DNA from: a virus
Taxonomy: Duplodnaviria; Caudoviricetes
Length of the DNA stretch: 64,000 bases
Reading direction: 5' to 3' (one strand)
IMG/VR virus record: IMGVR_UViG_2834368228_000004
Location: 130,706-194,705 of that record
Both the position numbers and the translations under genes were made by a program. Under the pieces are notes generated by a model that did not search any database, had not been told where the DNA came from, and saw only the letters and a program-made list of their open reading frames with translations. Shown here one piece after another: positions 1 to 35,323 of this stretch; within the stretch, counting starts at the first letter, position 1, and each line of letters opens with the position of its first letter.

Positions 1-28
1 GAGATTAGAATCACTTGGATTAACATAT

Positions 29-3000
29 TTGCCACCAGCTCAAGGTAATCAAGAGTTGGTGGCAATGTTCAACCCAGTTCAAAGAAGAGATTATTACCAT
101 AATTATAACTATCAAGATAATGTGCAAAAAATGGCCCAAGTTGTGAATCAAAACAATAACAGTAAAGACATTTTTGACAACCAACAAACATATCGGTTGT
201 TGAATAGTTCGCATAGTCGTATGGGGCAAGATCAAATGCGAAAATTTCAAGACTTCTCAACTGCAAATCAATTTTTCACATTTGATATTGAAACACTTGG
301 AAATGCTCTTCATGGTGATAACTTCAGCATTTCTGAAATTGCAGTACAAGGGTTCCAGCGAAATGGAAATAAATTTAAGCCATCTAACCAAAGCTTAACA
401 CTTGTTGGATCACCATCGCAGTCTGTACAAAATGATATGATTCAAGTTATCACTCAATTACGTCAGGATCCATATCAATTCAATAAGTTGGAAGATTGGA
501 AGAAGCGTACGCTTGTTGACTTAACAAGATATTCAACTCGAACCGATGGCGGAGTAACACCTGCTGTTTTTGAAAGTCAAAATGGCAATATGATTAACTT
601 TGGTCATAACAGTTTAGCTAATACCTTCTTTAAAGATGAAAGAATGATTGCTTCAAGAGTTATTGAGAAGATGAGTAATGTGTTACAACATGCAGAGTCA
701 GGTTTAGAAAATCTAAGCGAAAATAAATATGGATTAAACTCTAATCAAATGATTGATCAATTCAATAAATTTGTTCATCAAAACAATGATAGTTATTTCA
801 TATCCTACAATGGAGATTCATTTGATATTCCAAAATTAAAGGCTTTTGGAGAGCAAGCAGGAAATAATCCTATGCTGACTCCCAATAAACATTTAGACTA
901 CTTTCGTGTTATTCAAACAACATTCCCTAATCCTTTAGATTTACATCGCTTATTAAATCAAGATGCAAGCAGACCTAGTACTGGGATGACAAAACTACAA
1001 GCATTCCGCAGTACTTTAGGATACGATACGGAAGCAGCGCACAGTGCTACTCACGATATTGGGTTAGAAGGATTAGCTGGAGTTATACAAGAAAGTAATC
1101 CTCATATTCAAGATAGAATTCAAAATGGCAAAACAAGCATTGGAGATGGATTTAATTTTCAAACTGAAAAGTTTAGTTGGAATGATGCACCAGTAGAGAG
1201 AGGACAGACTTTATTTGCTTTGGGTGGAGTTCGAGCAAGAAGAGATGGCGAATTATCCTTTGCAGCAAAGTTTGATCCAGAAACAGGTGTGTACAATCCG
1301 ATTAATGATTCTTTTAATACAACTATCATTAATGCAAAAACATTCTATGATCTGGAAGGAATCGTTGATTTATCTGATGGAAATACGAATCGATATGGAT
1401 TAAAACTTTACGATCAGGATAGAGATTTACACAACTTTATTATTCGTGAAGGCGACAATGCATTACATGAGATTCAAGACTTTATGCAAAATCGTTTCTA
1501 TAATTGGGATGGTTTAGATAAAGAAACACGTAGAAGAGTATCAGATGCTCGATTAACAGATAGTGCTAGACGGCAGTATGAACGATTGTTTAGTTTGGAG
1601 AAAGCAGGAACTGGAAGGACAGGTGGGTTTAATGCTGCTCAGCGAACGTATCAAAATGCAAAAGTTCTAGAAGAACGTCTTAGTGGAAAAGATAAAAACA
1701 TACAAGGACCTGATTATCATGCGTTAAGGCAGAATCGTATCACTCATGAAAGTATGATGGAGCAGCTTCGTTCTGGATTCGACAGCTTATGGAATCCTGA
1801 AACAAAGTCGTGGGTAAAAAATGAGAGAGAAATGGAAAACTTCTTCCGTATGGGAGAAAGACTTATTTCAGAACGGCCAGCCTTTGAACCTGCCCTAAAA
1901 TATATTGAAAGTCATTTGTCTGAGCCGACACAAAGGGATTTAGCTTGGAATCTATATACAAAGAAAGTAAATGAAGCATTCCCTATGGCAAAAGAGACTA
2001 TTCCTCTACAAGAATTTGAAAACCGAAGAGTTGGATATACAGACTTTAATACAAATACAAAACACTCTTTAGATATGAGTTCATGGAGCTCAACTGAGCA
2101 AAGCATAAGTCGATATGTTTACAGTAGAGATATAAGTCAAAATGGAGATTTAACGCCTGAATTGAGAGAAGATCGATACCGGGAGCGAATGAACCAATTT
2201 TTAAAAACATTACAAGGTAACGATGTTATAAATGAAAATACAGCTAACGAATTAATTAATATTAATAATCAAAGCGCTACAGTTAGAAATGCCATTATCG
2301 AAGCAACAGACATTTTGCAAAGTAAGGTCTTTGACTTTGATAGCACTGTTCAACAAATATCACTTGGATATAATAATGCTATTCAGCAAATGGATTTAGC
2401 AACAAATGAAATAATGTTCCAAGAAGCGGTCAAACAAGTTAGATCCATGAATCAGGTTCGAATCAACCCACAGCAAGTAACAGGTTCAAAAGTTGAATTC
2501 AGTCCAGAGGTAGAAAGAGCACTTCAGCGATTAGATCAATCTCGTTTAAGTGGATTGTCACCGAACAACAGACAAGCGTTAGAAAGTGTTTTGTCTAGTG
2601 TTGTAGGAAACAGCAAATTTAATCAACATCATGTTGCTTTAAGCATGGACCAGCAAACAGCTAATGCTAGAATTTCCATTTACAATCCATCAAATAGTAC
2701 AAGCGTGATTGACGCTATCAGCAGTGGACAGGAGCACCCCAATGCCCTAAGCATTAATGTTCCTTTAGTTGGAGAACATGGTGTACATCAAATTGGAAAT
2801 AGACGTATTAACGCAAGAAGATACATGGATTATCAAGATGGCCAGTTTGTAGTAAGGTCTTCCACTCAACAGCTTGCAGATAATTATACTCGTAATATGA
2901 ACCGAATCTTAAGAGATTTTGATGAAGGGGATATCGAAGGTGCCAATAATCGTGCCAGAAGAGTTCTAAATGAAAGCTTAAGAAATCTTTCTGGAATACA

Positions 3001-6000
3001 GAGAAACTTAACATCTAATGATAGCTTCAACATGAACAATAACCAATCTGACTTTTTCAAACAAGGAAATGTTGAAGTTGATACAGCAATGGTTAAAGAT
3101 TTATATGCAAGAAACAGACTGACAAATGATGATTTTTATACAACAGCATTTGAAGGTGGAAGGTTAAGGCCAGATGTATCAGTAAATGATTTAAAGCCTG
3201 CCAAAGCATATGAAGTTTCATTAGCAGCTGGAGATTGGTTAAGAGATAACAATTTAAATCTCTTTGCAGGAACAAATAAAGGTGAACATGTATCTCAAAT
3301 GATGTTTAACGAACTGGATATTCGAGAATTTCTACCTTATGGTCATTATACGTTCCAAGGTCGAGATAACTCTGTTCAGTTACAAAATGCTCATTTATTA
3401 AACGCTCAAGTGCAAGAAAACATCTTAAATAATACAGAAGGCTATGTGAGCTTTAATGAACTAGTTGCTACTAATAAACAACGAGAATGGGTTAATCATT
3501 GGAGACAAACAAATCCTTCAGACGCAGCAGGAATGCAAATAAAAACAGCCTTCATTAACGATGGAACATTAATGGATCGAATAAACTCACTTTCTGAAAC
3601 AGAAAAAGGTTTAGATCTTCTGCGAGAAGAGGGAATTATCAATGCAGATGGATCATGGAACCACACAAAAATCCCACGTATATATGAACAACAAGGATTG
3701 ATTTCTCAGGACTTACAAGAGCAGGTTAAAGTAACAGAGCAGAAGATTTTATCTGAAACGGACGATGTAACACTATTTCGTAATTCAAGAAATGGAGATA
3801 CTGTTCAACCGGGGCAGGCAATAGGATATGAAATGATTAATGGGTATCAAAGAGAGTTGCGATATCAAGGTCCTAACCCAGGTACCGTTATCCAGCAGAA
3901 TGGTCGTGTAGGTGTTGCGTGGGAAGAAGATGCCTTCAAGTATATCGTTGAAGGGGAGAAAATGACAGATGTTCCTATCAGCAGACGTTTAATGTCCGCT
4001 ATAACCGGTGATGATTCCGTCAGTATGATTCTTAACCCAAACATTAAAAAGCACCGTGACTATGGTATGTTCTTGTCAGGAAAAGCAAAAATATTAGCAG
4101 ACTATGCGCATCAATTAAGTAATGATTTAGTTCAAGCTACAATAGATGCTCCTGTAACAGATAAAGCAAGCAGAAAAGCGTTAAGACGTATGGAGTTAGA
4201 GACTCAGTTTAACCGAACCATAAATCTCGCTTCAACAGTTGGTCTTCATTGGGATGCAAGTAGTAGGTCATTCATTCAAGAAGGAAACCCAAATATACCA
4301 GCAAATAGTTTTGAAAATATATTTGAAGAGCTCGGTTTGGTGGATAGGGATGAGCAAGGAAATGTTCTCCGAAGAATCGACCAATCATCTTTAGGTGACG
4401 AACTTGCGATTCTTGAAGCAAGAGTAAGTAAAGTAAGTAATCACAGTAAAATGATAGATGAAACAGGCCGAATCGTTTTAGAAGTGGGTCATGATAGAGA
4501 TGGTAATATAACGAAGAAATACCGTCGTAATGATTTAGGACAGTTTGAGCATGGTGGAGTGAGCTGGGGTCATCGAGAAATGGGGGTCTTTAAAGACCTA
4601 AATCTCACTGAAACCTATAATAAAGTATATGAAACGATGATGACTCAAGCTCAACAGAATAATAGATTAAATGAAACAAAGAGTATGATTGCAGCTGTTA
4701 GTGGAGCTGTCAATGAAAACCATACATTGGTTTCTGATGCTTCGACATTAAGTGTTGATGATTTTAGATCTCTTCCTGAAATTGATCGTGATACAAATAC
4801 GTATCAACAGACTATTTTTGATCGAGACTACATTGAACGACTGCATGGTAATAATAATGCTCACGGATTTTGGTTGGAGCTCCCAGGTGTTCAGCAAACA
4901 AATGGCGACACAAGAAGAGTGACTGCAAACATAAATGGAAGCAGTGGGGAAAGACAAGCATTAAATCGAATTTTCATTCCATTTACTAACTTAGAAGGAG
5001 CTAATGGAGAAGTTCACTTAAGAGAGCTTCAACGTAGCATTGGTGACATTTACAGGAGAGCAGCAGATGTAATTGGCGCAGGTTCCATTGATGAACGAGC
5101 ACGCTCGATGGACGGTTTGCAGGGTGCTGTGGATCGATACTTTGATCAAACAGTAAAAGATATCACTTCTTCTAAAGGACAAACAGGGAGCAGTGTATTG
5201 AAAGCTAGCATGCCTTCATCTGGAAGCGGCCTGTTTAAATTATTAGATCCATCTGTATCAATGGCGCTTGAAGGTGAATTTACATTTATTTCACCAGATG
5301 ATGCGAAGGCGCTAGGTGTTTATGATAAGTTAAAAACAATTGAGGAGCAGCGGGTAGCTGGAAAGAGTATAGATGATTTAATGGTGATGAATACTCGTTA
5401 TCCAGTGTTCCATAGTGATGCTGTTCAGATTTCAAAATTGCGTGTAAGTGAAGACGCAAGAAAAGGAGAGTTTTTAACTACTTCTTGGCAATCTGATTTA
5501 ATGAAGGCTGACTCCGATGGTGACTATAACAACATTGTTGTCTTAGATGATGATAACATCCAAAAAGAGTGGAGAAGACAATATAATTTACAAGAACAAA
5601 ATCGAGAACAAGCATATCTGGAACAGCTAGGAGATTCTGCTAGAAGCGGACGAGGATTTAATGCAGAGTATGTGCTTGGAGATAATGATGCATTTCGTCC
5701 TTTTGATCCAAATACGCAAGAGGAAATGGCAGCGAAAATTGGTAAACGGGTAGTTGGTTCTGCATCTAACTTAAACTTATATATGAGACAAGTTGCTGAC
5801 CAATATCTAAATCATGGTTCAGAAGAGCGCAGAGCTATTTACGAAATGGGTCAGGATTTAGAGCAAAAGCTTATTTCTTCAAAACATGGATTAACCGTAG
5901 AAGAGGGTCGTGCTCCTGCTATTGAAATGATTAATTCGGTATACAATAATAACTTCAGTGAAGCCAGAAAAATACAGCAAAAGTATTTTAAAGAAGACTT

Positions 6001-6787
6001 CAATTTAGAAATGATGGAAAAAGCTTTCTCTGGTTTAAGTAAAGCATATGAAAACCTAGACCAAGGCCTATATAATCCTTCACTAAAGTTTGGTACATCA
6101 CGAGGATTGAACACAGATGTCGGATTAAAAAATATCCATGACTTACTTCAAGGAGAAGCGGCCATGCATGAGACTGTTCAAACGAACAGCACATTGCGAA
6201 TGCTTCAAAACATTTTAGGAGTAGATAATCAGCAAACATTTACAGACATGGAAGGGAACTCTCATGTTCGAGTAGACCCATATGAATCCAGAAACGCCCA
6301 TATGCGTTCTGATCGATTAGGTGGCATGCAAGGAGCTATTCAGGAATATGGAGTAGATTTATCCGGCGGCTCTGAAGGATTTGGAAACAAGATTTCAGAT
6401 TTGATGGATACTGTTAATAATAATCGAAACTTTAAGTGGGGAATTATTGGAGCGGGGCTTGCACTTGGAGCTCTGGGAGGATACAATATTCTTAGACATA
6501 AAGATCCAATCGAGGCTCCACAAGATGAAATGCATTACACAGTTAACAACTCACCTGTTCAGCCAGCAATAGATATGAATCAAGGGAGCTATTCAGCAAA
6601 TGCTGATATAAGTGTTAATGCACGAGGTGGATCTTTAAATGACAACGAATTGGCACATATGATAAATCAAGGAATGGTAGATTCACAAATGAATCCTAGC
6701 AATCCACGAATAACAATTAACACAACTGATAATACACAGCAGCTTAATCGTTTCTGGTATAGAGATAAGATTGAGGAGAATGTGTAA
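29..6787 (+). CDS. Giant protein: N-terminal DEDDh exonuclease + single-chain two-barrel (beta/beta-prime-like) RNA polymerase + C-terminal hydrophobic segment; probable virion RNAP. May be 5'-partial
   Basis: Exonuclease motifs FDIE (D86/E88), YNGDSFD (D266), HSATHD (H338/D343). RNAP motifs in colinear order: VPLVGEHG, LPYGHYTFQGR, GMQIKTAF, KYIVEGEK, MILNP..R, GGVSWGHRE, DIYRR, LQGAVDRYFD, TRYPVFH, KADSDGD, EQKLISSKHG. The frame is open from nt 2, so the true start may lie before the window. Confidence 0.85.
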   Translation: MPPAQGNQELVAMFNPVQRRDYYHNYNYQDNVQKMAQVVNQNNNSKDIFDNQQTYRLLNSSHSRMGQDQMRKFQDFSTANQFFTFDIETLGNALHGDNFSISEIAVQGFQRNGNKFKPSNQSLTLVGSPSQSVQNDMIQVITQLRQDPYQFNKLEDWKKRTLVDLTRYSTRTDGGVTPAVFESQNGNMINFGHNSLANTFFKDERMIASRVIEKMSNVLQHAESGLENLSENKYGLNSNQMIDQFNKFVHQNNDSYFISYNGDSFDIPKLKAFGEQAGNNPMLTPNKHLDYFRVIQTTFPNPLDLHRLLNQDASRPSTGMTKLQAFRSTLGYDTEAAHSATHDIGLEGLAGVIQESNPHIQDRIQNGKTSIGDGFNFQTEKFSWNDAPVERGQTLFALGGVRARRDGELSFAAKFDPETGVYNPINDSFNTTIINAKTFYDLEGIVDLSDGNTNRYGLKLYDQDRDLHNFIIREGDNALHEIQDFMQNRFYNWDGLDKETRRRVSDARLTDSARRQYERLFSLEKAGTGRTGGFNAAQRTYQNAKVLEERLSGKDKNIQGPDYHALRQNRITHESMMEQLRSGFDSLWNPETKSWVKNEREMENFFRMGERLISERPAFEPALKYIESHLSEPTQRDLAWNLYTKKVNEAFPMAKETIPLQEFENRRVGYTDFNTNTKHSLDMSSWSSTEQSISRYVYSRDISQNGDLTPELREDRYRERMNQFLKTLQGNDVINENTANELININNQSATVRNAIIEATDILQSKVFDFDSTVQQISLGYNNAIQQMDLATNEIMFQEAVKQVRSMNQVRINPQQVTGSKVEFSPEVERALQRLDQSRLSGLSPNNRQALESVLSSVVGNSKFNQHHVALSMDQQTANARISIYNPSNSTSVIDAISSGQEHPNALSINVPLVGEHGVHQIGNRRINARRYMDYQDGQFVVRSSTQQLADNYTRNMNRILRDFDEGDIEGANNRARRVLNESLRNLSGIQRNLTSNDSFNMNNNQSDFFKQGNVEVDTAMVKDLYARNRLTNDDFYTTAFEGGRLRPDVSVNDLKPAKAYEVSLAAGDWLRDNNLNLFAGTNKGEHVSQMMFNELDIREFLPYGHYTFQGRDNSVQLQNAHLLNAQVQENILNNTEGYVSFNELVATNKQREWVNHWRQTNPSDAAGMQIKTAFINDGTLMDRINSLSETEKGLDLLREEGIINADGSWNHTKIPRIYEQQGLISQDLQEQVKVTEQKILSETDDVTLFRNSRNGDTVQPGQAIGYEMINGYQRELRYQGPNPGTVIQQNGRVGVAWEEDAFKYIVEGEKMTDVPISRRLMSAITGDDSVSMILNPNIKKHRDYGMFLSGKAKILADYAHQLSNDLVQATIDAPVTDKASRKALRRMELETQFNRTINLASTVGLHWDASSRSFIQEGNPNIPANSFENIFEELGLVDRDEQGNVLRRIDQSSLGDELAILEARVSKVSNHSKMIDETGRIVLEVGHDRDGNITKKYRRNDLGQFEHGGVSWGHREMGVFKDLNLTETYNKVYETMMTQAQQNNRLNETKSMIAAVSGAVNENHTLVSDASTLSVDDFRSLPEIDRDTNTYQQTIFDRDYIERLHGNNNAHGFWLELPGVQQTNGDTRRVTANINGSSGERQALNRIFIPFTNLEGANGEVHLRELQRSIGDIYRRAADVIGAGSIDERARSMDGLQGAVDRYFDQTVKDITSSKGQTGSSVLKASMPSSGSGLFKLLDPSVSMALEGEFTFISPDDAKALGVYDKLKTIEEQRVAGKSIDDLMVMNTRYPVFHSDAVQISKLRVSEDARKGEFLTTSWQSDLMKADSDGDYNNIVVLDDDNIQKEWRRQYNLQEQNREQAYLEQLGDSARSGRGFNAEYVLGDNDAFRPFDPNTQEEMAAKIGKRVVGSASNLNLYMRQVADQYLNHGSEERRAIYEMGQDLEQKLISSKHGLTVEEGRAPAIEMINSVYNNNFSEARKIQQKYFKEDFNLEMMEKAFSGLSKAYENLDQGLYNPSLKFGTSRGLNTDVGLKNIHDLLQGEAAMHETVQTNSTLRMLQNILGVDNQQTFTDMEGNSHVRVDPYESRNAHMRSDRLGGMQGAIQEYGVDLSGGSEGFGNKISDLMDTVNNNRNFKWGIIGAGLALGALGGYNILRHKDPIEAPQDEMHYTVNNSPVQPAIDMNQGSYSANADISVNARGGSLNDNELAHMINQGMVDSQMNPSNPRITINTTDNTQQLNRFWYRDKIEENV

Positions 6788-6799
6788 GGAGGTTCTTTA

Positions 6800-9700
6800 A
6801 TGGCTACAACATTAGCAGTTGATGACCGGGATTCCCGTTATGGGGTCCTCGGTGATCATTATATGCGTATTGGAGATACACAGTTTTATTTACCTCCAAC
6901 AGATATAAAAGTACATCGAATGATGAAGAATCAAAAGGTTTCTGTAATGCGAGGGAAAAACAGCTTGCCGAAAGAGTCTGGCTATTTTGATCGAGTAATA
7001 ACACTAACTATCTTCTTCCCAGATGTAAGGTCTATAAATGATGAGTTAAGACCTCTATTGGCACAAAGTAAAAAGTGCCCATTTTTACCAATAGAAAACA
7101 CTTATTTAAATGATGCACATAAGGTAGAAGCAATTACAATACAGAATGTTACAGTGCAAACCACACCAGGTTTTCCTAATACATTGCAGGCAATTATTCA
7201 ATGTTATGCATTTGAACCAGCTGCGTACATATATGGTTCTACTGAAAAGACATTTGATGAGATGTTTCATTGGCCATTATTTAGATGGTATTATGGCAGG
7301 CATTTAAAAAAGGTAAAAGTTGTTGATCCTGTCTTCAAGCAATTGTTTGGCAGTAATTCAGATAAGCAATTAACTTACTTTGAGCCTGTAAGTGGAGAGG
7401 TGACAAACGATTTTCAGTTTCGTATTGTAGCTGAAGATGATTTGTTAGCAATACGTGAATGGAACAAAGAGAAGAAAGAGCTAATTAAGGCTTGGCAGGA
7501 AGATAAGAATGGGTCTAGCTTAGGTGATTTCTTCAAAAATGCTATCAGTTCAAAGAAAGATGGAGCTAAGCCTATAACGAAAAAAGGCAAAGAACAACAG
7601 TTTAATGAAGAATATGATGAGTTATATTCAAAAGCAATGTATGAATATGATTTGCATTATGAAACTTGGGACTTAGGAAGAATGGAGCTAGAAGACTTTA
7701 GCATAAGTTTTGAAAACTCTATTTCATCTTATCAATTGCAGATGCATCAATCTCCTGCACACCAATATTTAGGTTCTCAGGATACTGTAATTGTAGCACG
7801 ATTTAAGACAGATGATATGGAGTCTGTTGCCAGTTTAGAAGATCTTATGAGAAGGACATCCTATCTGACACGTGAATACCACAAAGAAGTTTCAAATGGT
7901 TTCCTTGAGATTGACCATCAATTAGCAAGGCTCTATGGAGTGAAAAGTGTTGTCATTGATGATGTAAGTATCAATACAATAGAAGGTATGCCAGGTGTGT
8001 ATGACATTACATTGACCTTAATGGCTTATAATCGTGCTGAAAAGAAAATGCATGAAGTAAGTGCAATGACTTTGGGGTTAGACTGGGATGCAAGTGGTAC
8101 TATTGTAAATCCATACTTACAAAATGCGATGGCAGGATTTAAGAAAATACACACGTCTATTGGAATACAGCAAAATGCAGAACAACAAGCTATTTATAAT
8201 GAACATGTTATTAATGCTTTTCGTGCGGCAGAACTTTATCCAGACTTAGAGCTTCCAACATATGATGAAGTAAGAGAAGCTGGATTTAGTTTAATAAATA
8301 ATAACAATGGAGTCTTTGTAGATCCAGACTTTTTTATAAAGTATGATAGTTTTCAAGACTATGCTCAGCTATTAAGCGAATCTATTGATTCAGGAAGCAG
8401 CGACATCAAAATGTATGATGCCACTGGAGGAACTGCTACGGTTACTAAAGGTGGATTAAAGCTTGATGAAGTTGCTGATAGAAAAGTAGAAGAAATGAAG
8501 ACTATTACAAAAAACAGTGTTCCGAATCTGGGTGTTTCTGAAAACGTCAATGCAAATCAAGATACTACAAATCGTTCTACCCTTGAGATGGAAGCCTTAA
8601 TAAGAAAATCTGCACAGGTATATGAAATTCCTGAAATCTATCCAATAGCTTTTGCGAAAGCATTTGACTCCAAGTTAAGGCATTTTTATGAAGTGGGAGA
8701 CAATCCTGAACTTGGTGGGATCTATAATAGTAGTGCTGGCTCTCCAATTTTTATGGGGTCCAATTTAAACCTTCTAGGTGGAGATAGATCTGCGGATTAT
8801 GCAGGTGTTATGCGTGTTTCCAATCAATATGGGGATGCTAAATTAATTAGTAAAAGCATAGAGTATAATGTTGATGTTGGAATGCGTTACATGAAGTACT
8901 ATTGGGAAGTTGCAGGTTCCATGATGGAAGATGAGAGAATTAATACAGATCGCTTGCATCAAATGTTAGATATTCCTAATACGAGTTTAGACGATAGCTA
9001 CAAAGCGCAATTCATTCTTATGTCTGCTCTCTATTTGCAACATGACCGAGAAATTCTTGCAGTGATGAATAAAGGGCAAGAACCGAGAGCAAGTATCCTT
9101 CGTATTTATGAGCACTTACTAGATGTATTGGATGGAACAGAAGCATGGGGATATGAAAAGTTGCAGAAAGAGTATGGGAAGCTAAAAGTGCAAGATTACA
9201 AGGCCACCATCTATACCGTTGATGATGACAATCCAACTCTTAATATTAAGCAATCTGATATCGATATTGAAGATACAACAGAGTTAGAAAAAACAATGAT
9301 GCATGATATGCTTGAATATGACCGTAGAGGGAGACTTGTTAGGGCTTTCCCAACATTTTTTATGACATTTATTGATGAAGGACAATTTGTAGGAAGTGCA
9401 AAAATGTCAGACCAGTACTTTCACTACAGAGCAATTAGTGACATTACATACAATAATAGTCGGAAGCAAGCTTCCAGTACACTAGTGTGTGAATTAAGTA
9501 ATGTATTCGGCTCCTTAAGTGATAGTGAGAAAGCACAAGATTTAACGCATACTTCATTTGGCGATATGTTCCTTGCATCAATTATGCCAGGCGCTGTTGC
9601 AAAAGCTCAAGAGAGAAGCAGACATCGAAATTCTAACTTCTATAAGAGTATTTATCTTCGTACAGGTGTTAGGGTTCACATGAGAATGGGATATGGAGCA

Positions 9701-12700
9701 AACGCTGCTGAACTGCCAACTATCATGAATGGAACTATAACAAGTCTTCAAAATAATGGAGCAACCATAACAATGATTGCTCAAGACGATGGAATAGAGC
9801 TTACGAATAAATTAAATGCAATGATGGATATTGATCCACAAGATGAAACCAGTGGATTTTTAAGCTCCAAAAAAGAGCCAACGGAAATTATCGATGAGCT
9901 ATTAACTGACTCACGAGGATTATGGTCAAACATTTCTGCATCACTAAGCAACAAAGAATATCAAGATCATGCACTTGGTGTAATGCATTTCGGTGAAACT
10001 GGATTACCTCAAGGAATTGCAGACTTTAAAGATTTATTTACACTTGGAATTATGGAGAGCAGGGATCGGGCTGAAGTAAATATGAATGTTTATCAGACGA
10101 CGGGGCTCCTTCATGAAGATCAAAGCAAATGGTACAACCGATTAAAGGATGGTCTTGGAATTGGAGAATCAGATGAGGTAAATATTAATATTAACCTTTA
10201 TGATAAGACGATATGGGATGTTCTAAACATTGGAGCATCAGTCGGGTCTGACATGATAACAGCGGTCCATCCATTTGGTTTAAGAAGTACTATCTTTTTA
10301 GGGAAACCATACTTCCCAATCACCTATGGATATAAAGTTGACTTAGAATCAGAAAAAGTTGTTGGTGAGAAAATCAAGTCGTTCAAACAACTGCATTCTT
10401 ACGATAGTTACACATCCATTATTAGTAATGGGATTAAAGCTACGGAAGACAATATGTATACTGTTGCAGTAGGGGCATATAACAATGAGGGTAAACTGAA
10501 TGTAACCCCACCAGTTTATGTAGATAGTAATATATGGCCAGAGAAACAAAAGACAGTAAATATTGATACAACATTGAATGCTAAAGGAGTAGCAGCGTTA
10601 GGGGCAGTTCCCTTTATTGGAGATATGTTAAATAAACCAGCTAAATGGTTCTTTGATGAAGGTGTTGCACTTAAAATAACTGCTGCAGGACTACGTGATT
10701 TTGTAAAAGATATGTATGATGGTTATTTGACGGTTCCTGGTGATCCCTCTGTGAAGCCTTACGACACAATGCTACTTCAAGACTTTTATACAGATATGGT
10801 TGGTCCCGCAGATATGAAGGAGATTATTCACGTTATGAATCACGATGTAGGATTCATAACAATGATAAAACCTGATGTAATTGCCTACAATGAAGATCAA
10901 ACTATTTTTAATACCATTGCACGAGCGATGACAGTTGTAGCTTATGCTGCCACTAGAATGATTGCCCACAATATTTTAAAAGCAAAAGGATATACAGGTT
11001 CATTTCCTATTTTAAACGCAGTCTGGTCAAGCACAAAAGAAAAGATGGGTAAAGCTCATCGAACATTTAAAGGAACCGCTTCTAAGGTAACAAATAGAAT
11101 ACCGCAGCTTGATATTGACCGATGGAAGAAAAATGGAACATTTGATAGTCTCTCTAAATCCTTTGGTAATGTTTCTAAGAAAGACTTAGAAGACCTGTTG
11201 AAGAAAGGGCAATTAAATGCATCTAAAACAATAAAAGATTTCAATAAGAAGTATCCTAACTTAAATAAAAAAGCAAGTACAGTTTTATTGAAGGGTGAAA
11301 AGGGAGCTAAGAAAGTTTTGAGTGGTGGAAAGGCTTTGGGATCTGTAGTTAAAGGAGCTTGGAAAGCAAAGCACGCTTTATTAGGACCTGCAGGTATTGT
11401 AACTTTAGCAATAGAAAGTGTAGTTGTATCAGCTCTTAGCTCAACAGTTGGTGAGTTTACTGAAAGATTTTTAATGAATAGGCAAGCTGTAATTATTGTT
11501 CCTCTGAAAAAAGATGGATTTGAGTTCACTGCAGGTATAAATGGAAATAAAGGTTCAGTCGAATCCATACCAGAAGATTTAACAAAGTTTTATGAACATC
11601 TTCCTGGACCGCTTTTAGATATGTATATAAGTGCAGAAAGTGCAAACAGTGAAGATGCAGGAGCTAGATTATTTTCAATTCGAAGTGCTTCATCTCAAAA
11701 AACAGTTGATTTAAGCACCATTTTGAATGGACGGATATCTTCCAGTCATATGTATAAAGATAATGGACTTATTGAAGAGATGTATAAAACAGATGTAGCA
11801 GCAGCAGAGAAAGAGATTGCAGAGCGCTTAGAATATTTAGTTAGCATGACACAAGAAGCTCAAAATGTTCAATATACTCATCTTCAAGAAAAGGATTTGA
11901 GTGCTCAAAGTATTTTCTCTAACTTCCTCAATCTGTTGTTTAAGGGCAGTGATACAGAGACCGAGCAGTGGGATGGTACAGGAAGTATTTCACTTAATGG
12001 TAAAGCTGTTAATCTATCAAAGTATTTTAATAAGCTTGGACCGATGATCGATAAAGAAACAGAAAGACAAGGTGTTCCCCAGTATGCGGAAATATTAAAA
12101 GCAAAAACAATGCAAGAATCTGGTGGTAATTATGAACGATATCCAGATGTCATGCAGTCATCAGAAAGCTTAGGACTCCCTCGAAACTCTATCGGTTTAA
12201 GTCGAAGTTTAGAGCAAGGTGTAAAATACTTCATACAGATGATGAATTCAGCAGGTGGAGATGTCGCCCTAGCTATGCAAGCTTATAACTATGGTGGTGG
12301 ATTTATCAACTATGTTAAAGAGCGTGGTGGAGCATGGACACAAGAATTAGCAAATGCTTTCTCTGACATGAAAGCAAGCCAATTGGGTTGGAAAAGATAT
12401 GGAGATAAAAATTACATTAAAAATATCATGCGCTACTATGAATATCCAAAAGGTGGAACAGATGACGCACCATCCACAATCGGGTCAGAAGGAAGGTCAA
12501 AATATCGATTGAGTTTAAGTCAAGCTAAAAGTCAATTGATTGAAGCTAGAGAAGCTAATGATAGAAAGTTTAATGTTACATTAGTTGGATCAAGTACAAG
12601 CTTGATGAGAAAAGGCACATTTGATTTATTAAATCAAATAGCTCAGGATTATAAAAAGTCTACAGGGAAAACAATTAATATTACAAGTGCTTATCGAGCA

Positions 12701-12982
12701 AATGATCCAAACTGGCATGGTACTGGATATGGGGTAGATATTGATACCCCCAATACAATGAGAAGACTTTCTGGAGGAAAGCTTGGATTTCCAAACGGTA
12801 ATGATAAAAATGAAGCAGTCAAGTTGATTGAAGCATCTATTAAAGCAGGTTTTAGTGGAATTTATTTTGGAGATTGGTTCATTATTGAAAATATGAAACG
12901 CAAATATCCCAAAGTACAATTCACCTATGAACCAAATAATCATCATAATCACTTGCACTTATCATACCCTCTCAAAGGATAG
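6800..12982 (+). CDS. Baseplate hub / tail-associated peptidoglycan hydrolase (degenerate SLT-like, GH23 lysozyme-like and M15 peptidase domains)
   Basis: RBS AAGGAGG. C-terminal MQESGG..DVMQSSES..QAYNYG (CwlT-like lysozyme domain) followed by ITSAYR..HGTGYGVD..HNHLH (Zn peptidase M15). Sits directly before the spike and baseplate genes. Confidence 0.8.
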   Translation: MATTLAVDDRDSRYGVLGDHYMRIGDTQFYLPPTDIKVHRMMKNQKVSVMRGKNSLPKESGYFDRVITLTIFFPDVRSINDELRPLLAQSKKCPFLPIENTYLNDAHKVEAITIQNVTVQTTPGFPNTLQAIIQCYAFEPAAYIYGSTEKTFDEMFHWPLFRWYYGRHLKKVKVVDPVFKQLFGSNSDKQLTYFEPVSGEVTNDFQFRIVAEDDLLAIREWNKEKKELIKAWQEDKNGSSLGDFFKNAISSKKDGAKPITKKGKEQQFNEEYDELYSKAMYEYDLHYETWDLGRMELEDFSISFENSISSYQLQMHQSPAHQYLGSQDTVIVARFKTDDMESVASLEDLMRRTSYLTREYHKEVSNGFLEIDHQLARLYGVKSVVIDDVSINTIEGMPGVYDITLTLMAYNRAEKKMHEVSAMTLGLDWDASGTIVNPYLQNAMAGFKKIHTSIGIQQNAEQQAIYNEHVINAFRAAELYPDLELPTYDEVREAGFSLINNNNGVFVDPDFFIKYDSFQDYAQLLSESIDSGSSDIKMYDATGGTATVTKGGLKLDEVADRKVEEMKTITKNSVPNLGVSENVNANQDTTNRSTLEMEALIRKSAQVYEIPEIYPIAFAKAFDSKLRHFYEVGDNPELGGIYNSSAGSPIFMGSNLNLLGGDRSADYAGVMRVSNQYGDAKLISKSIEYNVDVGMRYMKYYWEVAGSMMEDERINTDRLHQMLDIPNTSLDDSYKAQFILMSALYLQHDREILAVMNKGQEPRASILRIYEHLLDVLDGTEAWGYEKLQKEYGKLKVQDYKATIYTVDDDNPTLNIKQSDIDIEDTTELEKTMMHDMLEYDRRGRLVRAFPTFFMTFIDEGQFVGSAKMSDQYFHYRAISDITYNNSRKQASSTLVCELSNVFGSLSDSEKAQDLTHTSFGDMFLASIMPGAVAKAQERSRHRNSNFYKSIYLRTGVRVHMRMGYGANAAELPTIMNGTITSLQNNGATITMIAQDDGIELTNKLNAMMDIDPQDETSGFLSSKKEPTEIIDELLTDSRGLWSNISASLSNKEYQDHALGVMHFGETGLPQGIADFKDLFTLGIMESRDRAEVNMNVYQTTGLLHEDQSKWYNRLKDGLGIGESDEVNININLYDKTIWDVLNIGASVGSDMITAVHPFGLRSTIFLGKPYFPITYGYKVDLESEKVVGEKIKSFKQLHSYDSYTSIISNGIKATEDNMYTVAVGAYNNEGKLNVTPPVYVDSNIWPEKQKTVNIDTTLNAKGVAALGAVPFIGDMLNKPAKWFFDEGVALKITAAGLRDFVKDMYDGYLTVPGDPSVKPYDTMLLQDFYTDMVGPADMKEIIHVMNHDVGFITMIKPDVIAYNEDQTIFNTIARAMTVVAYAATRMIAHNILKAKGYTGSFPILNAVWSSTKEKMGKAHRTFKGTASKVTNRIPQLDIDRWKKNGTFDSLSKSFGNVSKKDLEDLLKKGQLNASKTIKDFNKKYPNLNKKASTVLLKGEKGAKKVLSGGKALGSVVKGAWKAKHALLGPAGIVTLAIESVVVSALSSTVGEFTERFLMNRQAVIIVPLKKDGFEFTAGINGNKGSVESIPEDLTKFYEHLPGPLLDMYISAESANSEDAGARLFSIRSASSQKTVDLSTILNGRISSSHMYKDNGLIEEMYKTDVAAAEKEIAERLEYLVSMTQEAQNVQYTHLQEKDLSAQSIFSNFLNLLFKGSDTETEQWDGTGSISLNGKAVNLSKYFNKLGPMIDKETERQGVPQYAEILKAKTMQESGGNYERYPDVMQSSESLGLPRNSIGLSRSLEQGVKYFIQMMNSAGGDVALAMQAYNYGGGFINYVKERGGAWTQELANAFSDMKASQLGWKRYGDKNYIKNIMRYYEYPKGGTDDAPSTIGSEGRSKYRLSLSQAKSQLIEAREANDRKFNVTLVGSSTSLMRKGTFDLLNQIAQDYKKSTGKTINITSAYRANDPNWHGTGYGVDIDTPNTMRRLSGGKLGFPNGNDKNEAVKLIEASIKAGFSGIYFGDWFIIENMKRKYPKVQFTYEPNNHHNHLHLSYPLKG

Positions 12983-15714: not shown

Positions 15715-16857
15715 ATGGACGTAGTTTCACTTGGAAAAGCAATGAGTACATTGCGAAGTATTCAAGAATTAAATGATGCAATTATTGGCCAGAAAGCAGA
15801 AGGGCATTTCAAAACTGTCGATCATCGGTTGGATTGGATAGAAGGACAAGCGGAGAAATTGATTGTGAAAGGAAGCAAGCAAATTGGTTTAAATCAAGGT
15901 TTGTCTTATAACACTGAGGTAGATAATAATAAAATAAAACTACAAGTAGTGGGAAAAACTATAATAAATTCAGAGACGAATTTGTTATTAAATAACTTAA
16001 ACAAAACCTTTGGATTTAGTTTTTCTCCTAATTTGTTTCGGTTTAGTAATCAGGGAGAAAGTGCAATGTTTGATGGTGATCTAGGAAATTTGGGAGCCAA
16101 CTCCTCTATAAGCTCAACTTTTCCTGGATGGTTTCAAATTTCTTTTCATGAAGCTAAAAATCTCTCCAAAATGAGATTTATTTATAATGGGTATGGAAAA
16201 CCAAGAGAATGGAAAGTAGAAGGAAGCAATGATGAAATAGAATTCGATCTTATTTATCATGAAACAAATGAAACCAAAACAGAAATTGACATATTAATAG
16301 AAGACCCAGTTCCTTATCAGTACTATCGCATAACATGGAACAGTATAAGATCTGGAAATAGAATGACAGTTAATGAAGTTGAATTTTACGAGCAAGAAGA
16401 AATAAACACATATTTTCCACAAGGAACATGGACTTCTCCTGTTATAGATTTAGGTATAGGATGGAAAGAAACAAAGTTAGTGGATGTGTTGAAGCAAGAA
16501 ACAGCAAATGCTACGGTTACACTAGAAGTGGCCACCTCCACAGATGGAGTGTCTTTTACACCATTCACACTTTTAGATGAGTCCAATCCACAACAATCAA
16601 GATACGTAAAGATACGTGCAACACTATCAGCAGATGCCGACATTGGTGGAGAAGATAAGACTCACGACTTTGACCAGTCCAGTGAAGAAAACAGATTCAC
16701 CTTGAATGATTATGTAGAAGCTAACGGTGAATTAAAACTTGTAACGTCTTACACAAGCATAGATGAAACACCTACACCAGAAGGAGTAGGGCAAGTATAT
16801 GAGTATGTCATTGATAAGAGCAAGTTTAAGAAAATAGAAAGCATTTCAGTAAACTAA
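15715..16857 (+). CDS. Tail fibre/appendage protein with discoidin (F5/8C-like) domain
   Basis: PREWKVEGSND...YQYYRI...VNEVEFY; N-terminus MDVVSLGKA shared with 21560 and 26392. Confidence 0.7.
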   Translation: MDVVSLGKAMSTLRSIQELNDAIIGQKAEGHFKTVDHRLDWIEGQAEKLIVKGSKQIGLNQGLSYNTEVDNNKIKLQVVGKTIINSETNLLLNNLNKTFGFSFSPNLFRFSNQGESAMFDGDLGNLGANSSISSTFPGWFQISFHEAKNLSKMRFIYNGYGKPREWKVEGSNDEIEFDLIYHETNETKTEIDILIEDPVPYQYYRITWNSIRSGNRMTVNEVEFYEQEEINTYFPQGTWTSPVIDLGIGWKETKLVDVLKQETANATVTLEVATSTDGVSFTPFTLLDESNPQQSRYVKIRATLSADADIGGEDKTHDFDQSSEENRFTLNDYVEANGELKLVTSYTSIDETPTPEGVGQVYEYVIDKSKFKKIESISVN

Positions 16858-16872
16858 AAGGAGAGATATAAA

Positions 16873-17280
16873 ATGTCTATAGATGAAACTTATTCGAGAA
16901 CATATATAGCATTCTGTGGTGCAGATTTAATGGTAACAATTAACGGTGAAATCGTAGGAGAATTACAAGAGCTAAATTGGGAAGAAGATTTCTTTGCTTC
17001 AGACGAGTATACAATTAATGGGGAAGCTTTATTCGTTACTTTTGAATACGAGCTTGATCTATATAAACTAGCTAAAGAAAAAAGAGAATTCAATATCTGC
17101 ATTGCTTATGCAGCTGAATATGGTAAAAAAATGTATTACAGAATTTATGATTGCTTACTAACAAAGCGAGCAGGAAAACATGCTGTAGATGATATCGTCA
17201 TTAATGAAAAGTATTACTTCAAAGCAAAGAGAATTGAAAAGATAACAGGTGAAAAAGCAGATTTTATATTAAGTAAGTAG
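16873..17280 (+). CDS. Putative tail-tube-like paralog
   Basis: TYIAFCGADL..GELQEL...DDIVINEKYYFKAK resembles tube-fold proteins of large Bacillota myoviruses (from recall, unverified). Confidence 0.4.
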   Translation: MSIDETYSRTYIAFCGADLMVTINGEIVGELQELNWEEDFFASDEYTINGEALFVTFEYELDLYKLAKEKREFNICIAYAAEYGKKMYYRIYDCLLTKRAGKHAVDDIVINEKYYFKAKRIEKITGEKADFILSK

Positions 17281-17292
17281 AGGTGAATTGAT

Positions 17293-18417
17293 ATGCCAGT
17301 ACCAGCTACAACGGGTAGTTTAAAAACAAGCATTCACGATATGGAGATAGGGGATTATATAGTTGCAAGTTCTCATAGAGCAAGCTCTTCATCTGTACCA
17401 AGGTTAAATACTAACATGGGAAATGAACATGTGTTAAATAGCGGTAGCTATGAAGATGTGTATTCAGGAACAACAACTGGATCTATTCTTTTCTATTACG
17501 TGAAAGTAGCAAAAGGTTTGCTTATAAGTGATCGTGTAATTTACCATACTATTTCGTGGGATTTACTGAATACAAATAAACTTATACAAGAATTACCTTG
17601 GGACAATGGAAACATTATCCCCATTATGACAAGTAATAATTCTCCTAGTGGAGTGGCTAGTGCGAGTGGGGAATATGTAGAGCCTCTTAATAACAGTAAG
17701 GTTTACAGAGCATGGGAAGCTTTTCATGATAATTATACTGGTTGGTTATCAGATACTCCTGGAAGAGGTTGGCTTTCATATCAGTTCGCCAAAGCAGAGA
17801 TTGTAAACGGCTATAAATTTAAATCCTCAGGTTCTATGTATAATTTAGAGCAAGCACCTAAATCATGGACATTTGAAGGCTTTGATGGTGAGAACTGGGT
17901 CATACTTGATGAACAAAAAGATGTAACAAATTGGATTGAAGGTGAATATAAGTCATTCAGTTTTTCAAATTCAACTCCTTATTTAACTTATAGAATACTT
18001 GTCACAGAAAACCAGAATACCAGTAGAGTTGTTAATATAGGGCATTTAGAAATGTATGACACAGCAGGCACTATACGCTCCCTTACAGGAGGAGTAGCTT
18101 ATGCAGATGAGAATGGAAATAAAAGTACAATGGATCAAAGCTTTGGAGCATGGCCGACCAATAATGAATGGGATCGTTATATTGTAAACTTTCCTGAAGA
18201 GAAGATACAAGTAGGTAAGACACTAGATGATGTGTTTCATTCGAGTAATATTAGAGCGTGGACTCAAGACACTCCAGATGTAAACCTATCTTCAGGAAGT
18301 CCTTCTAGTAGGGTTACAAGAGGAGGAGGAAGTGGGGTAGAAAATGTTGTATTCTACACATCAAGTGGAGCCACTACAACAAATGGATTTCGTCCGTGTT
18401 TTGAGTATAAAGAATAA
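17293..18417 (+). CDS. Receptor-binding protein: CLec/FGE-like fold with inserted discoidin domain
   Basis: ISWDLLN...[IPIMTSNNSPSG...APKSWTFEG...YRIL]...NNEWD...RVTRGG...GFRP. Confidence 0.65.
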   Translation: MPVPATTGSLKTSIHDMEIGDYIVASSHRASSSSVPRLNTNMGNEHVLNSGSYEDVYSGTTTGSILFYYVKVAKGLLISDRVIYHTISWDLLNTNKLIQELPWDNGNIIPIMTSNNSPSGVASASGEYVEPLNNSKVYRAWEAFHDNYTGWLSDTPGRGWLSYQFAKAEIVNGYKFKSSGSMYNLEQAPKSWTFEGFDGENWVILDEQKDVTNWIEGEYKSFSFSNSTPYLTYRILVTENQNTSRVVNIGHLEMYDTAGTIRSLTGGVAYADENGNKSTMDQSFGAWPTNNEWDRYIVNFPEEKIQVGKTLDDVFHSSNIRAWTQDTPDVNLSSGSPSSRVTRGGGSGVENVVFYTSSGATTTNGFRPCFEYKE

Positions 18418-18434
18418 AGGTAGGTGAATAAAGA

Positions 18435-21400: not shown

Positions 21401-21470
21401 ACTAAAAATAAAAATTAAACTTCCAAGTAGCAACTCCAAACTTTCAGCAGTTTCAGTTGGTTGGGCTTAA
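18435..21470 (+). CDS. Multidomain fibre adhesin (two tandem beta-sandwich repeats, CLec-like domain, discoidin domain)
   Basis: Two repeats VG(E/D)QLL.PE.GW.RYDD...LDAIDIDE.G; ISWDTLN..NEWD..RVLRG..AFRP; discoidin AFDD..W..FEGRND..YRL. Confidence 0.7.
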   Translation: MATVGEQLLQPESGWRRYDDTHESIKYHDLVNIGASLSGAYNGTYSSYNIPEGETFASFKFIGSKIRWTARINIGYSEKADIYIDGNNIGSASLQGDNAYQILVFDFSNLEYKEHIVKIVLPQGGTVNLDAIDIDETGELLPPPAQVGDQLLDPEEGWKRYDDRHPAIKYEGNWIRSNITGYFNGTTTGTDSNGEDSYSFKFIGTKIRLVDALAENRSSSVRVIIDGVEESYSAYGPSTARATLVYEKTGLEFKEHTVEVINSLTRFIALDAIDIDENGRFLHESEALTPDELTIGKRIRAHYSAPTSGQVGIFSNLGEETYVDGINDFIPPESSTTPDGDFYYICVDEYNGKKILVADRNIQHSISWDTLNSEGIPNTGLPITIEEYDPSLYSFTTRLLTGGISSSDKDNEWDKYIVEGTGNGRYVAGDDEVWHWDISVGNQNTWFPRTWTSSTPSSNAQHRVLRGQSLSGISPAGVDAFYTALSNEASNVRAFRPVLEIESLTPPSINKYLFEDNGEVKKWDSLNNIWITISPAPATEQLFLEQGMDNLDEITDEGLQQLVSSSPKLLHYTDDASKESSTMSIQAVPHGQLVFPEGDIEVSGGVENININIEFEPYVFEGLIPTLNSNQSNIGEVIYNHEYSSGYRGWMAFDDNDNTRWAGSTNPIGYIGFRFIEPQVVSKYYFKALAQKPYNYQFEGRNDNSNWEILHEVKGETWLSDEIDKTHIIDNNESYSHYRLHILNSNEFGPSISELKMYKKNSYLNLNCIVSPDQSFTWYSFNGEWQPIEPTKESVKLNGMTPDVVSNLTKEQIDSLLNGSTTLRFAYYLEQEELTDTVYVDTLTISSPPAASETPVLEGINLTYDELTIEGRMKDLEKTNAINMAKLNFKANALIQSERYNLHDLVIDTFEDTTGVESMTATYSNEEKAFTGTGEVILLPEQVDVSPHTLWIATEGSNDLVFEYLSDNQTWVEIAENNLHELNEVNITELKIKIKLPSSNSKLSAVSVGWA

Positions 21471-21490
21471 AAAGCCCTTCCTTCTTTTTA
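21463..21490 (+). terminator. Putative intrinsic terminator
   Basis: GGGCTT-AAA-AAGCCC hairpin followed by a T-rich tract at the gene end. Confidence 0.5.
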
Positions 21491-21500
21491 TTTGATACGT

Positions 21501-21528
21501 TATAATATTAACAGTGAAATGCACTACA
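21501..21528 (+). promoter_or_regulatory. -10 box plus palindromic operator variant
   Basis: TATAAT at 21501-21506; TGAAATGCACTACA at 21515-21528. Confidence 0.55.
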
Positions 21529-21559
21529 TTATTAAACCACCTTACAGAGGAGGTATTAA

Positions 21560-35287: not shown

Positions 35288-35297
35288 TTCCCCCTTT
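35279..35297 (+). terminator. Weak putative terminator
   Basis: GGGGGA-TAAT-TCCCCC followed by TTT. Confidence 0.4.
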
Positions 35298-35323
35298 ACT
35301 TTAACCAAAAAGGAGTGATATGA

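Follow-up and report, generated by a model that had tools for sequence, protein, structure and literature searches.

A predicted single-chain RNA polymerase of the beta/beta-prime type within a giant tail-module protein of contractile-tailed Bacillota phages

Introduction

Why a phage tail gene should encode what looks like the core of a cellular transcription enzyme is the question raised by a stretch of viral DNA (Duplodnaviria; Caudoviricetes) that spans positions 130,706 to 194,705 of the IMG/VR record IMGVR_UViG_2834368228_000004. This whole stretch of 64,000 nucleotides, here called the window, begins inside a giant gene (2..6787, + strand) in the tape-measure slot of the tail module of a large Bacillus-type phage with a contractile tail, and an earlier note had proposed from the letters that its product hides a compact fused beta plus beta-prime RNA polymerase (RNAP). 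With an RNAP delivered from the virion, a phage can begin transcription independently of the host enzyme, and such RNAPs have repeatedly given unusual enzymology, as in N4, phiKZ/AR9, crAss-like gp66 and P23-45 gp96. Here we ask whether the giant protein has the fold and the catalytic residues of an RNAP, which known polymerases it resembles, and what it might do for the phage.

According to the list of open reading frames (ORFs) and the translation, window positions 2-6787 (+) form a single reading frame, 2,261 codons long, that runs off the window at its 5' edge. A metagenomic protein with 98% identity to the window protein (P0002; the window protein is P0001) is full length at 2,267 residues; the frame therefore extends about 6 codons beyond the window on the 5' side, and the TTG at position 29, from which residues had previously been counted, is not the real start. 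Residues are numbered below as in P0001; full-length numbering is P0001 plus 6, and the earlier numbers equal P0001 minus 9. In our best reading, the product is composed of four parts: a DEDDh exonuclease-like domain, a conserved middle region, the RNAP and a C-terminal module. The RNAP part is predicted to be a single-chain two-barrel enzyme of about 1,130 residues, in which a beta-like half is followed by a beta-prime-like half.

Results

Predicted structure of the polymerase region

Residues 880-2010 were modelled with AlphaFold2 using a 23-sequence alignment and no templates, and the model reached a mean predicted local distance difference test score (pLDDT) of 84.9 and a predicted template modelling score (pTM) of 0.78. 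A Foldseek search against the PDB gave at least 500 matches at E <= 0.001, and all of the 50 listed were RNAP beta or beta-prime chains. The VIA search, which is independent of Foldseek and covered 48,161 PDB representatives, returned only beta-type chains at ranks 1-9 with the whole model (Z 11.5-14.6). These included the beta-like chains of the non-virion RNAPs of phages phiKZ (Z 14.6) and AR9 (Z 14.0), bacterial beta with 504 residues aligned at Z 13.9, and second-largest subunits of Pol I/IV/III, plastid, African swine fever virus and vaccinia enzymes. In the same search, Rpb1, A190 and beta-prime chains aligned over model residues 688-1131 (Z 8.8-10.3, 333-365 residues). With VIA-align, E. 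coli beta was superposed at Z 15.6, model residues 226-605 corresponding to beta 661-1245 with 296 residues aligned; over the whole beta-like half, model residues 1-675 were matched to beta 76-1304 with 507-512 residues aligned. No solved DNA polymerase was found among the 50 matches listed by each structure search.

The beta-like half, recognised by the AlphaFold2 model, VIA-align and the VIA search, therewith comprises residues 880-1559 (2639..4678, +), and the beta-prime/Rpb1-like half comprises residues 1560-2010 (4679..6031, +). The confidently folded unit (nt 2639-6031) is slightly wider than the segment 2700-5950 of the earlier note, which had given its size, about 1,100 residues, correctly. 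We folded the beta-prime-like half alone (pLDDT 76.6), and an exhaustive VIA search with this separate model put the largest RNAP subunits at the top (Z 10.2-12.7, 218-270 residues), namely those of Pol I, II, III and IV and of the vaccinia, archaeal, mycobacterial, AR9 and phiKZ enzymes. Isolated or designed double-psi beta-barrel proteins aligned at Z 8-9.9, with a root-mean-square deviation of 1.9-2.5, on residues 1737-1869 (residues 178-310 of this model). The DSDGD triad lies within this barrel segment, which is itself inside the Rpb1/beta-prime matches and recurs in the whole-model search. Eight rows were listed by the ESM Atlas, seven of them beta-prime/Rpb1 clusters and one baculovirus LEF-9, and the rows carrying PF04998 (Rpb1 domain 5) covered query residues 9-441, which is nearly the whole beta-prime half. 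The sub-threshold matches of PF00623 described below agree with this assignment. The structural check set out in the earlier note thus gave a beta-type half and a beta-prime-type half, with DxDxD carried on the double-psi barrel of the latter.

Conservation of the motifs and catalytic residues

All 14 motif strings quoted in the earlier note are present in the window protein and colinear in the order given, on the + strand. Those of the beta-like half are NVPLVGEHG... (nt 2756-2809), FLPYGHYTFQGRDN... (nt 3329-3391), AGMQIKTAF (nt 3527-3553), YEQQGLISQ (nt 3683-3709), KYIVEGEK (nt 3938-3961), SMILNPNIKKHRDYG (nt 4022-4066) and HGGVSWGHRE (nt 4550-4579). In the beta-prime-like half they are GDIYRR (nt 5042-5059), LQGAVDRYFD (nt 5117-5146), SKGQTG (nt 5171-5188), SSGSG (nt 5216-5230), TRYPVFH (nt 5393-5413), KADSDGD, which lies at nt 5504-5524 exactly as had been reported, and EQKLISSKHG (nt 5861-5890). 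A word-indexed search collected 25 homologues of 2,166-2,693 residues with 27-98% identity over the region, and 23 of them (24-57% identity) were aligned for the analysis of conservation, to which invariance refers below. In residues 880-2010, 65 columns are invariant. The 14 motifs amount to 141 residues, or 12% of the region, and hold 33 of these columns against 8 expected, a 4-fold enrichment (hypergeometric p 5.5e-15).

The invariant positions include R1799-x-P1801-x-F1803, followed by the nearly invariant H1804, in the counterpart of beta-prime NRAPTLH (TRYPVFH); D1837, D1839, G1840 and D1841; and K1961/H1962. The metal-binding aspartate triad DSDGD (D1837/D1839/D1841; 5510..5524, +) is therefore unchanged among the 23 homologues. 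K1313, E1319, K1320, T1322, N1345, H1351, D1353, R1525 and E1526 are invariant as well. The spacing from the arginine to the first catalytic aspartate is 38 residues in the window protein, and it is about 35 residues in E. coli beta-prime. We also ran an exhaustive HMMER profile search over 1.84 billion representatives (E <= 0.001), which returned 115 proteins, nearly all of 2,100-3,100 residues with the polymerase module at about residues 800-2,300; the family size is thus about 115 clusters at 50% identity. Giant tail-type proteins were the only matches, and no ordinary rpoB or rpoC product was among the 115. RxP followed 15-75 residues later by DxDxD was found in 86 of 87 long representatives, and the 87th, which falls outside this count, has DYDGD. 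The triad is written DSDGD in 26 of the 86, as the cellular DFDGD in 13 and as DYDGD in 10. Conservation of DxDxD, on which the earlier note had made its proposal depend, therefore extends from the aligned homologues to distant representatives.

Further active-site elements can be proposed from aligned ranges, invariance and secondary structure. The segment 5729..5890 (+) contains a candidate bridge helix, AAKIGK...NLNLYMRQ (5729-5797, residues 1910-1932), and a candidate trigger-loop hairpin, EQKLISSKHG; the invariant positions there are K1912, G1914, K1915, G1919, S1922, N1925, E1954, Q1955, K1961 and H1962. In the model, the catalytic barrel is followed by two long helices and then by a loop with K1961-H1962, and the Rpb1/beta-prime alignments reach the model end. 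An assignment of these elements to the bridge helix and to a trigger loop with its histidine, as the earlier note suggested, is plausible. It is likewise plausible that K1313 and K1320 of KYIVEGEK (earlier numbered K1304 and K1311), which are seven residues apart and both invariant, correspond to the basic pair that the beta-type barrel supplies, K1065 and K1073, since both fall within the segment that aligns with beta 661-1245. Together, the predicted fold and the invariant catalytic residues support the proposal of a compact fused beta plus beta-prime RNAP. That the protein is a true homologue of two-barrel RNAPs, its active site intact, is in our view close to certain, and the modelled enzyme is very probably an active polymerase.

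Relation to single-chain and multisubunit polymerases

Single-chain two-barrel enzymes also align over both halves of the model, more weakly: QDE-1 at Z 10.1 (430 residues), P74-26 gp62 at 7.8 and maize RDR2 at 7.1, and in the VIA search crAss-like gp66 and P23-45 gp96 align to the whole model at Z 6.0 each. No YonO structure was present in the structure-search lists. With beta-type chains at Z 11.5-15.6 (300-512 residues) and beta-prime-type chains at Z 8.8-12.7, the protein appears to be a single chain of the multisubunit-RNAP type and not of the YonO/QDE-1 type. Its closeness to beta and beta-prime includes lobe-like and clamp-like parts outside the barrels. The earlier note had named crAss-like, YonO and phiKZ/AR9 enzymes as analogues; the likeness is strong for the beta-like chains of phiKZ and AR9 and weaker for gp66, and the family profile gave no match to YonO.

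Bacterial beta/beta-prime and the split subunits of phiKZ and AR9 (PDB 7OGP, 7S00/7S01) are the best matches overall, with Z 13.9-15.6 for beta and 10-12.7 for beta-prime. The window protein shares with multisubunit RNAPs the order of beta and then beta-prime, RxPxxH...xADxDGD, and the beta 'GRDN..Q' and 'G.RE' regions. It differs from them in being one chain of about 1,130 residues instead of about 2,750 residues in two or more chains; alpha, omega and sigma partners are not evident here, and the Pfam Rpb1/Rpb2 cut-offs are unreached.

Sequence searches

Comparison of sequences did not reveal a polymerase. For the window protein, the matches in Pfam and PHROGs were limited to weak ones to exonucleases, and neither phmmer nor a profile hmmsearch against the PDB found anything relevant, with no PDB sequence matching at E up to 10. 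A blastn search of the region against 50,697 phage records gave no match, and with tblastn KLEB27-3 was the sole match (23% identity). At the gathering score the window protein matches no Pfam Rpb1/Rpb2 model, so it is not a member by Pfam criteria; PF00623 (RNA_pol_Rpb1_2) is the sole recurrent Pfam family, reaching sub-threshold scores in 8 of 23 members (best E 0.006). PF05183 did not match the window protein, whereas ORF099 of Bacillus phage 0305phi8-36 matches this family (RdRP) at E 1.2e-18. Alignment of the family profile to the single YonO sequence with hhalign gave no match (probability 0.06%), a result that is uninformative because a single-sequence template is weak.

Exonuclease-like domain, middle region and C-terminal module

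The N-terminal part of the protein (about residues 85-360; 254..1081, +) is a DEDDh (DnaQ-like) 3'-5' exonuclease-like domain with the motifs FDIETLG, YNGDSFDIP and HSATHD. ExoI DxE, ExoII D and ExoIII HxxxxD are complete, and D95, E97, D275, H347 and D352 are invariant. The family profile of this domain matches the ExoII region of family-B DNA polymerases (E 6e-4), Pfam RNase_H_2 (PF13482) stays below its cut-off in the window protein (18.9 vs 22 bits), and PF00929 is recorded for three distant homologues. No fusion of an exonuclease with an RNAP occurs among the solved RNAPs returned by the fold searches. The following region (residues 361-879; 1082..2638, +) is conserved throughout the family, with D520, R523, R524, N607, E610, R620 and E624 among its invariants, and it has no family or structure match.

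The C-terminal module (6407..6784, +) consists of a Gly-rich hydrophobic segment (6437-6493), a Pro-rich linker and a domain of about 60 residues ending in ...DNTQQLNRFWYRDK..., with the end pattern DN..LNR.W. The Gly-rich segment (residues 2146-2164) is the hydropathy maximum of the protein. A hidden Markov model (HMM) built from the last 110 residues of 113 family members was used to search 729 ORFs from the window and three phage tail regions. Over its full length it matched the C-terminus of 0305phi8-36 gp146 (E 9.9e-13), and among the 729 ORFs it found nothing beyond family members and gp146. The module of about 110-130 residues is thus common to window 6407-6784 and gp146 (L016:14624-22237), proteins whose bodies are otherwise unrelated, and the tape-measure-slot protein therefore looks modular, with an exchangeable body.

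Gene order and relatives

The earlier note had located the gene in a tail module, and gene order confirms this. In all six loci examined (L003, L004, L005, KLEB27-3, WH1 and 0305phi8-36), the order is sheath, tube, two chaperones, a protein of about 1,950 residues, the polymerase gene or its slot equivalent, a lysozyme-bearing hub and baseplate genes. Tube-like genes, two small chaperone-type genes and the protein of about 1,950 residues lie upstream in near-identical or related contigs. Immediately 3' of the giant gene, the window encodes a baseplate-hub-type protein of 2,060 residues with a lysozyme-like domain (6800..12982, +; Pfam Lysozyme_like, E 2.3e-32, residues 1747-1881), which matches phrog_20474 ('endolysin') over its full length at E 0 and is the counterpart of gp147, the enlarged gp27-like hub of 0305phi8-36. 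In 0305phi8-36 the slot region consists of gp145, gp146, labelled 'hypothetical tape measure protein', and the gp147 hub, and the record of gp146 states that mass spectrometry detected it in virions. The embedding of the polymerase in a tape-measure-slot protein is therefore given by the gene order in the six loci and by the C-terminal module shared with gp146.

We considered whether gp146 also hides a polymerase and rejected this, as DxDxD is absent from it, neither the exonuclease nor the polymerase profiles match it, and the C-terminal module is all that it shares; the slot protein thus occurs with and without the enzyme body. The cultured members of the family are the Bacillus phages KLEB27-3, WH1 and Edson. 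KLEB27-3 gp034 (2,434 aa, deposited as 'structural protein') and WH1 gp095 (2,515 aa, 'virion structural protein') match all four family modules, with NRYPTIN...KADYDGD and KADHDGD, respectively.

Relatives L004, L005 and L017-L021 lie on contigs of 190-225 kb from Virgibacillus and Priestia assemblies; IMG/VR classifies two of them as provirus and one as having direct terminal repeats, and they may be lytic jumbo phages, prophages or phage-plasmids. Structure matches to the model in BFVD included a 'minor tail protein' of Siphoviridae sp. ctnpt50 (E 2.7e-25, 1,297 columns) as well as uncharacterised proteins from the Acinetobacter phage vB_AbaM_ME3 and the Microcystis phage MaMV-DC, and judged by predicted structure these may be further unannotated polymerases.

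Baseplate wedge genes, tail-fibre genes and giant adhesin-like proteins follow further 3' in the window. A run of tail-fibre-like genes (15715-25611) carries phrog_17517, 16348, 10667 and 38477 in varied combinations, which suggests a paralogous receptor-binding cassette. Three giant adhesin-like proteins of 2,077, 2,193 and 1,488 aa (29054-41905 and 45752-50218) have PA14, GLEYA, Ig-like group 1, invasin D3, thrombospondin-C and VWA domains and recall orf163/164 of 0305phi8-36.

A second polymerase in relatives

A second polymerase candidate is encoded in four of five IMG/VR relatives, among them each of the three with a completeness of at least 97%; it is an ORF of 1,165-1,237 residues with FRNP...GGADNDGD that is related to ORF099 of 0305phi8-36 (BLASTP E 1.4e-10). 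It was located at L025:2893-6594 (- strand), and copies at G001:C1:119789-123049, G003:C1:14197-17667 and G005:C1:57014-60661. In G001, the closest relative, three in-frame stops (1 TAG, 2 TAA) fall within the match, and this copy may therefore be interrupted or decayed.

ORF099 (ABS83659.1), which has 1,218 residues and is monocistronic and non-structural, lies near the right genome end and is the published 'YonO-like RNAP' of 0305phi8-36 (PMC7824862, PMC2919709, PMC2147016). The idea that the tail gene is this published enzyme was rejected, as ABS83659.1 is ORF099, a separate non-structural gene. PF05183 gave no match in KLEB27-3 and WH1, where the controls were equally silent. In the SPbeta-like phages Goe11, Goe14, BUCT083 and SPbetaL4-L7, yonO is in two pieces in several, split by an inserted gene, and in BUCT083 a GIY-YIG nuclease is annotated at the insertion; this suggests a mobile intron in the polymerase gene.

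Comparison with known phage systems

The closest functional precedent, absent from the analogues listed in the earlier note, is gp96 of Thermus phage P23-45, in which the N-terminal part of a 5,002-residue tape measure is a two-barrel virion RNAP (PMC10770324). Its targets are the pre-early genes, one of which encodes the non-virion RNAP gp64, and relatives of P23-45 without the tape-measure fusion keep gp64 (PMC10770324). With gp96 as a precedent, the architecture is less unprecedented than the earlier note implied. Like gp96, the window protein has a single-chain two-barrel polymerase within a giant tape-measure-slot protein; a separate second two-barrel polymerase is encoded elsewhere (here seen in relatives); and in some relatives the slot protein lacks the polymerase (G18 and phiFa there, 0305phi8-36 gp146 here). 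Unlike gp96, to which it has no detectable sequence similarity and a structural match of only Z 5.9-6.0 (295-327 residues; 7.5 for the barrel only), the window protein has its polymerase in the C-terminal half of about 2,270 residues, in a contractile tail, with lobe-like and clamp-like parts and an exonuclease ahead, whereas the gp96 polymerase is N-terminal in 5,002 residues, in a non-contractile tail, and is flat and clampless. The structures compared were PDB 8H2M/8H2N and, for the P74-26 gp62 homologue, 8F5M. By analogy, the window protein would work like gp96 and stand outside the gp96 family.

The gp66 protein of crAss-like phi14:2 (PDB 6VR4) is similar as a cryptic two-barrel RNAP in a tail-gene protein of about 2,200 residues that was missed by annotation. 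It differs in its structural match of only Z 6.0 (419 residues), in belonging to a podovirus-like phage of Bacteroidota and in having no exonuclease domain; it falls in the QDE-1/YonO-like clade (PMC10770324). SPbeta YonO and ORF099 are, like the window enzyme, single-chain two-barrel enzymes of Bacillota phages (PMC5467207, PMC2919709, PMC7824862, PMC2147016), whereas ORF099 is a separate gene on the other genome arm, matches Pfam RdRP and has relatives that coexist with the giant protein. The 0305phi8-36 gp146 protein shares the slot, a similar size (2,537 aa) and the homologous C-terminal 110-130 residues, and it differs in a body without DxDxD or an exonuclease or polymerase profile match.

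Discussion

The predicted fold, the conserved catalytic residues, the gene position and the C-terminal homology to a virion protein lead us to propose that the phage probably injects its own transcription enzyme. This proposal draws on the P23-45 analogy, the tape-measure slot, the module shared with gp146 and the hydrophobic segment. The giant protein would be built into the tail along with the tape-measure and hub proteins and expelled through the tail tube at infection, ahead of the DNA. Its hydrophobic C-terminal part would sit in the membrane at the entry site, and the anchored polymerase, presumably DNA-dependent, would transcribe the first-entering DNA independently of the host RNA polymerase. 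A YonO/ORF099-like polymerase of about 1,200 residues might then take over, where present. A possible task of the exonuclease is to prepare the DNA end or to trim RNA. By the model and by analogy, we hold it likely that the protein is a particle-borne, injected single-chain RNAP with a DEDDh exonuclease that transcribes the first phage genes; virion-delivered early transcription, taken separately, is also likely, at slightly lower confidence. A bolder version is tentative and at present rather doubtful: with exonuclease and cell-type RNAP core delivered through the tail on one chain of about 250 kDa, tethered in the membrane by a C-terminus of tape-measure type, the exonuclease would resect or trim the first DNA end or the transcript and so make the template or promoter, and transcription would help to draw the genome in before the YonO-like takeover. 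If true, this would be a new virion RNAP lineage, independently derived from multisubunit RNAP, with nuclease-coupled initiation, which is not known for RNAPs.

Several points weigh against injection of an RNAP from the particle. No sequence method was significant against any RNAP (Pfam, PHROGs, PDB phmmer and profile searches, hhalign against YonO), and the homology therefore rests on predicted structure and motifs. The lysine pair, the bridge helix and the trigger loop are equated with those of cellular enzymes only as aligned ranges. Half of the protein is globular, with residues 880-2010 folding as an alpha/beta enzyme, so that the giant protein is unlikely to be the length ruler itself, and the upstream protein of about 1,950 residues may be the real tape measure. 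A protein of about 250 kDa with a folded core of 1,100 residues would need either to be stored or to pass the tail tube unfolded. In KLEB27-3 and WH1, no second polymerase was found using YonO and ORF099 as single-sequence queries, which are weak. Literature searches, with subscription journals outside their reach, found no experiment on the family and no paper behind the depositors' 'structural protein' labels.

Among the alternatives, the most serious is an active RNAP that is not particle-borne and is made late with the tail genes to act in the producing cell, its place in the tail operon reflecting co-expression. A tail tube would carry a large globular enzyme only with difficulty, no proteomic report on the family was found in the literature, and YonO-type single-chain enzymes are non-virion (PMC5467207); SPbeta YonO is reported to act on late genes. 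Against this stand the chaperone-hub slot kept in every locus examined, the C-terminal module common to a virion protein of 0305phi8-36, the resemblance of the hydrophobic Gly-rich segment to those of ejected tail proteins, and the separate YonO-like enzyme that relatives already have for an intracellular role, and we consider such an enzyme unlikely. Another job for the two-barrel core, namely RNA-primed or RNA-dependent synthesis, a primase-like start or proofread DNA synthesis as by PolD, the two-barrel archaeal enzyme, with the exonuclease as its editing partner, would account for the fact that DEDDh exonucleases normally accompany DNA polymerases, and for the N-terminal profile match to the PolB exonuclease region; QDE-1, an RNA/DNA-dependent RNAP, aligns over both halves as well (Z 10.1, 430 residues). 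We find it improbable, however, as beta (Z 14-15.6) and beta-prime of DNA-dependent multisubunit RNAPs are clearly the best matches, with lobe-like and clamp-like parts, and as RxPxxH, xADxDGD and a conserved histidine past the second long helix occur as in transcribing enzymes.

Loss of catalysis would make the fold a dead relic with a structural or DNA-gripping role in the tail or in ejection. Exapted domains are common in tail proteins and activity is unreported, but the aspartate triad persists in 86 of 87 representatives whose identity is otherwise below 50%, and none of the other active-site candidates varies among the 23 aligned homologues, so that this explanation has very little probability. 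That the resemblance reflects chance short motifs in a long low-information protein would fit sequence searches that all fall below significance; it is already refuted by the fold searches, as independent structure searches put RNAPs above all other folds for both halves and the quoted motifs coincide with invariant columns, and we give it practically no credence. Injection of an active RNAP from the particle is accordingly the reading that we prefer.

Virion RNAPs concealed within giant proteins of the tail or the tape-measure slot are of a kind already known from crAss-like gp66 and P23-45 gp96. What appears to be new is a sequence-isolated family with a beta plus beta-prime core, its DEDDh fusion, its setting in contractile-tailed phages of Bacillota and the dimorphism of a slot with and without the enzyme. 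No description was found in the literature of the family, its cultured members or in papers citing the P23-45 work (subscription journals were outside the search), and such an enzyme is undocumented, for Bacillota hosts or for contractile tails, in the literature searched. The survey tables of the P23-45 paper contain no 0305phi8-36-like entries and no DSDGD motif (PMC10770324).

The finding corrects the annotations 'structural protein', 'minor tail protein' and 'tape measure', and it shows that in tail modules like that of 0305phi8-36 the tape-measure slot exists in a form that has a polymerase and in one that lacks it. As the cultured members KLEB27-3, WH1 and Edson grow on ordinary laboratory hosts, direct tests are possible of packaging, of early transcription that resists rifampicin, of the promoter type and of what the exonuclease does. 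Among virion-delivered RNAPs, the family would be a fifth, sequence-isolated solution, with a core that resembles a minimal one-chain version of the cellular beta/beta-prime enzyme and not the RdRP-like type.

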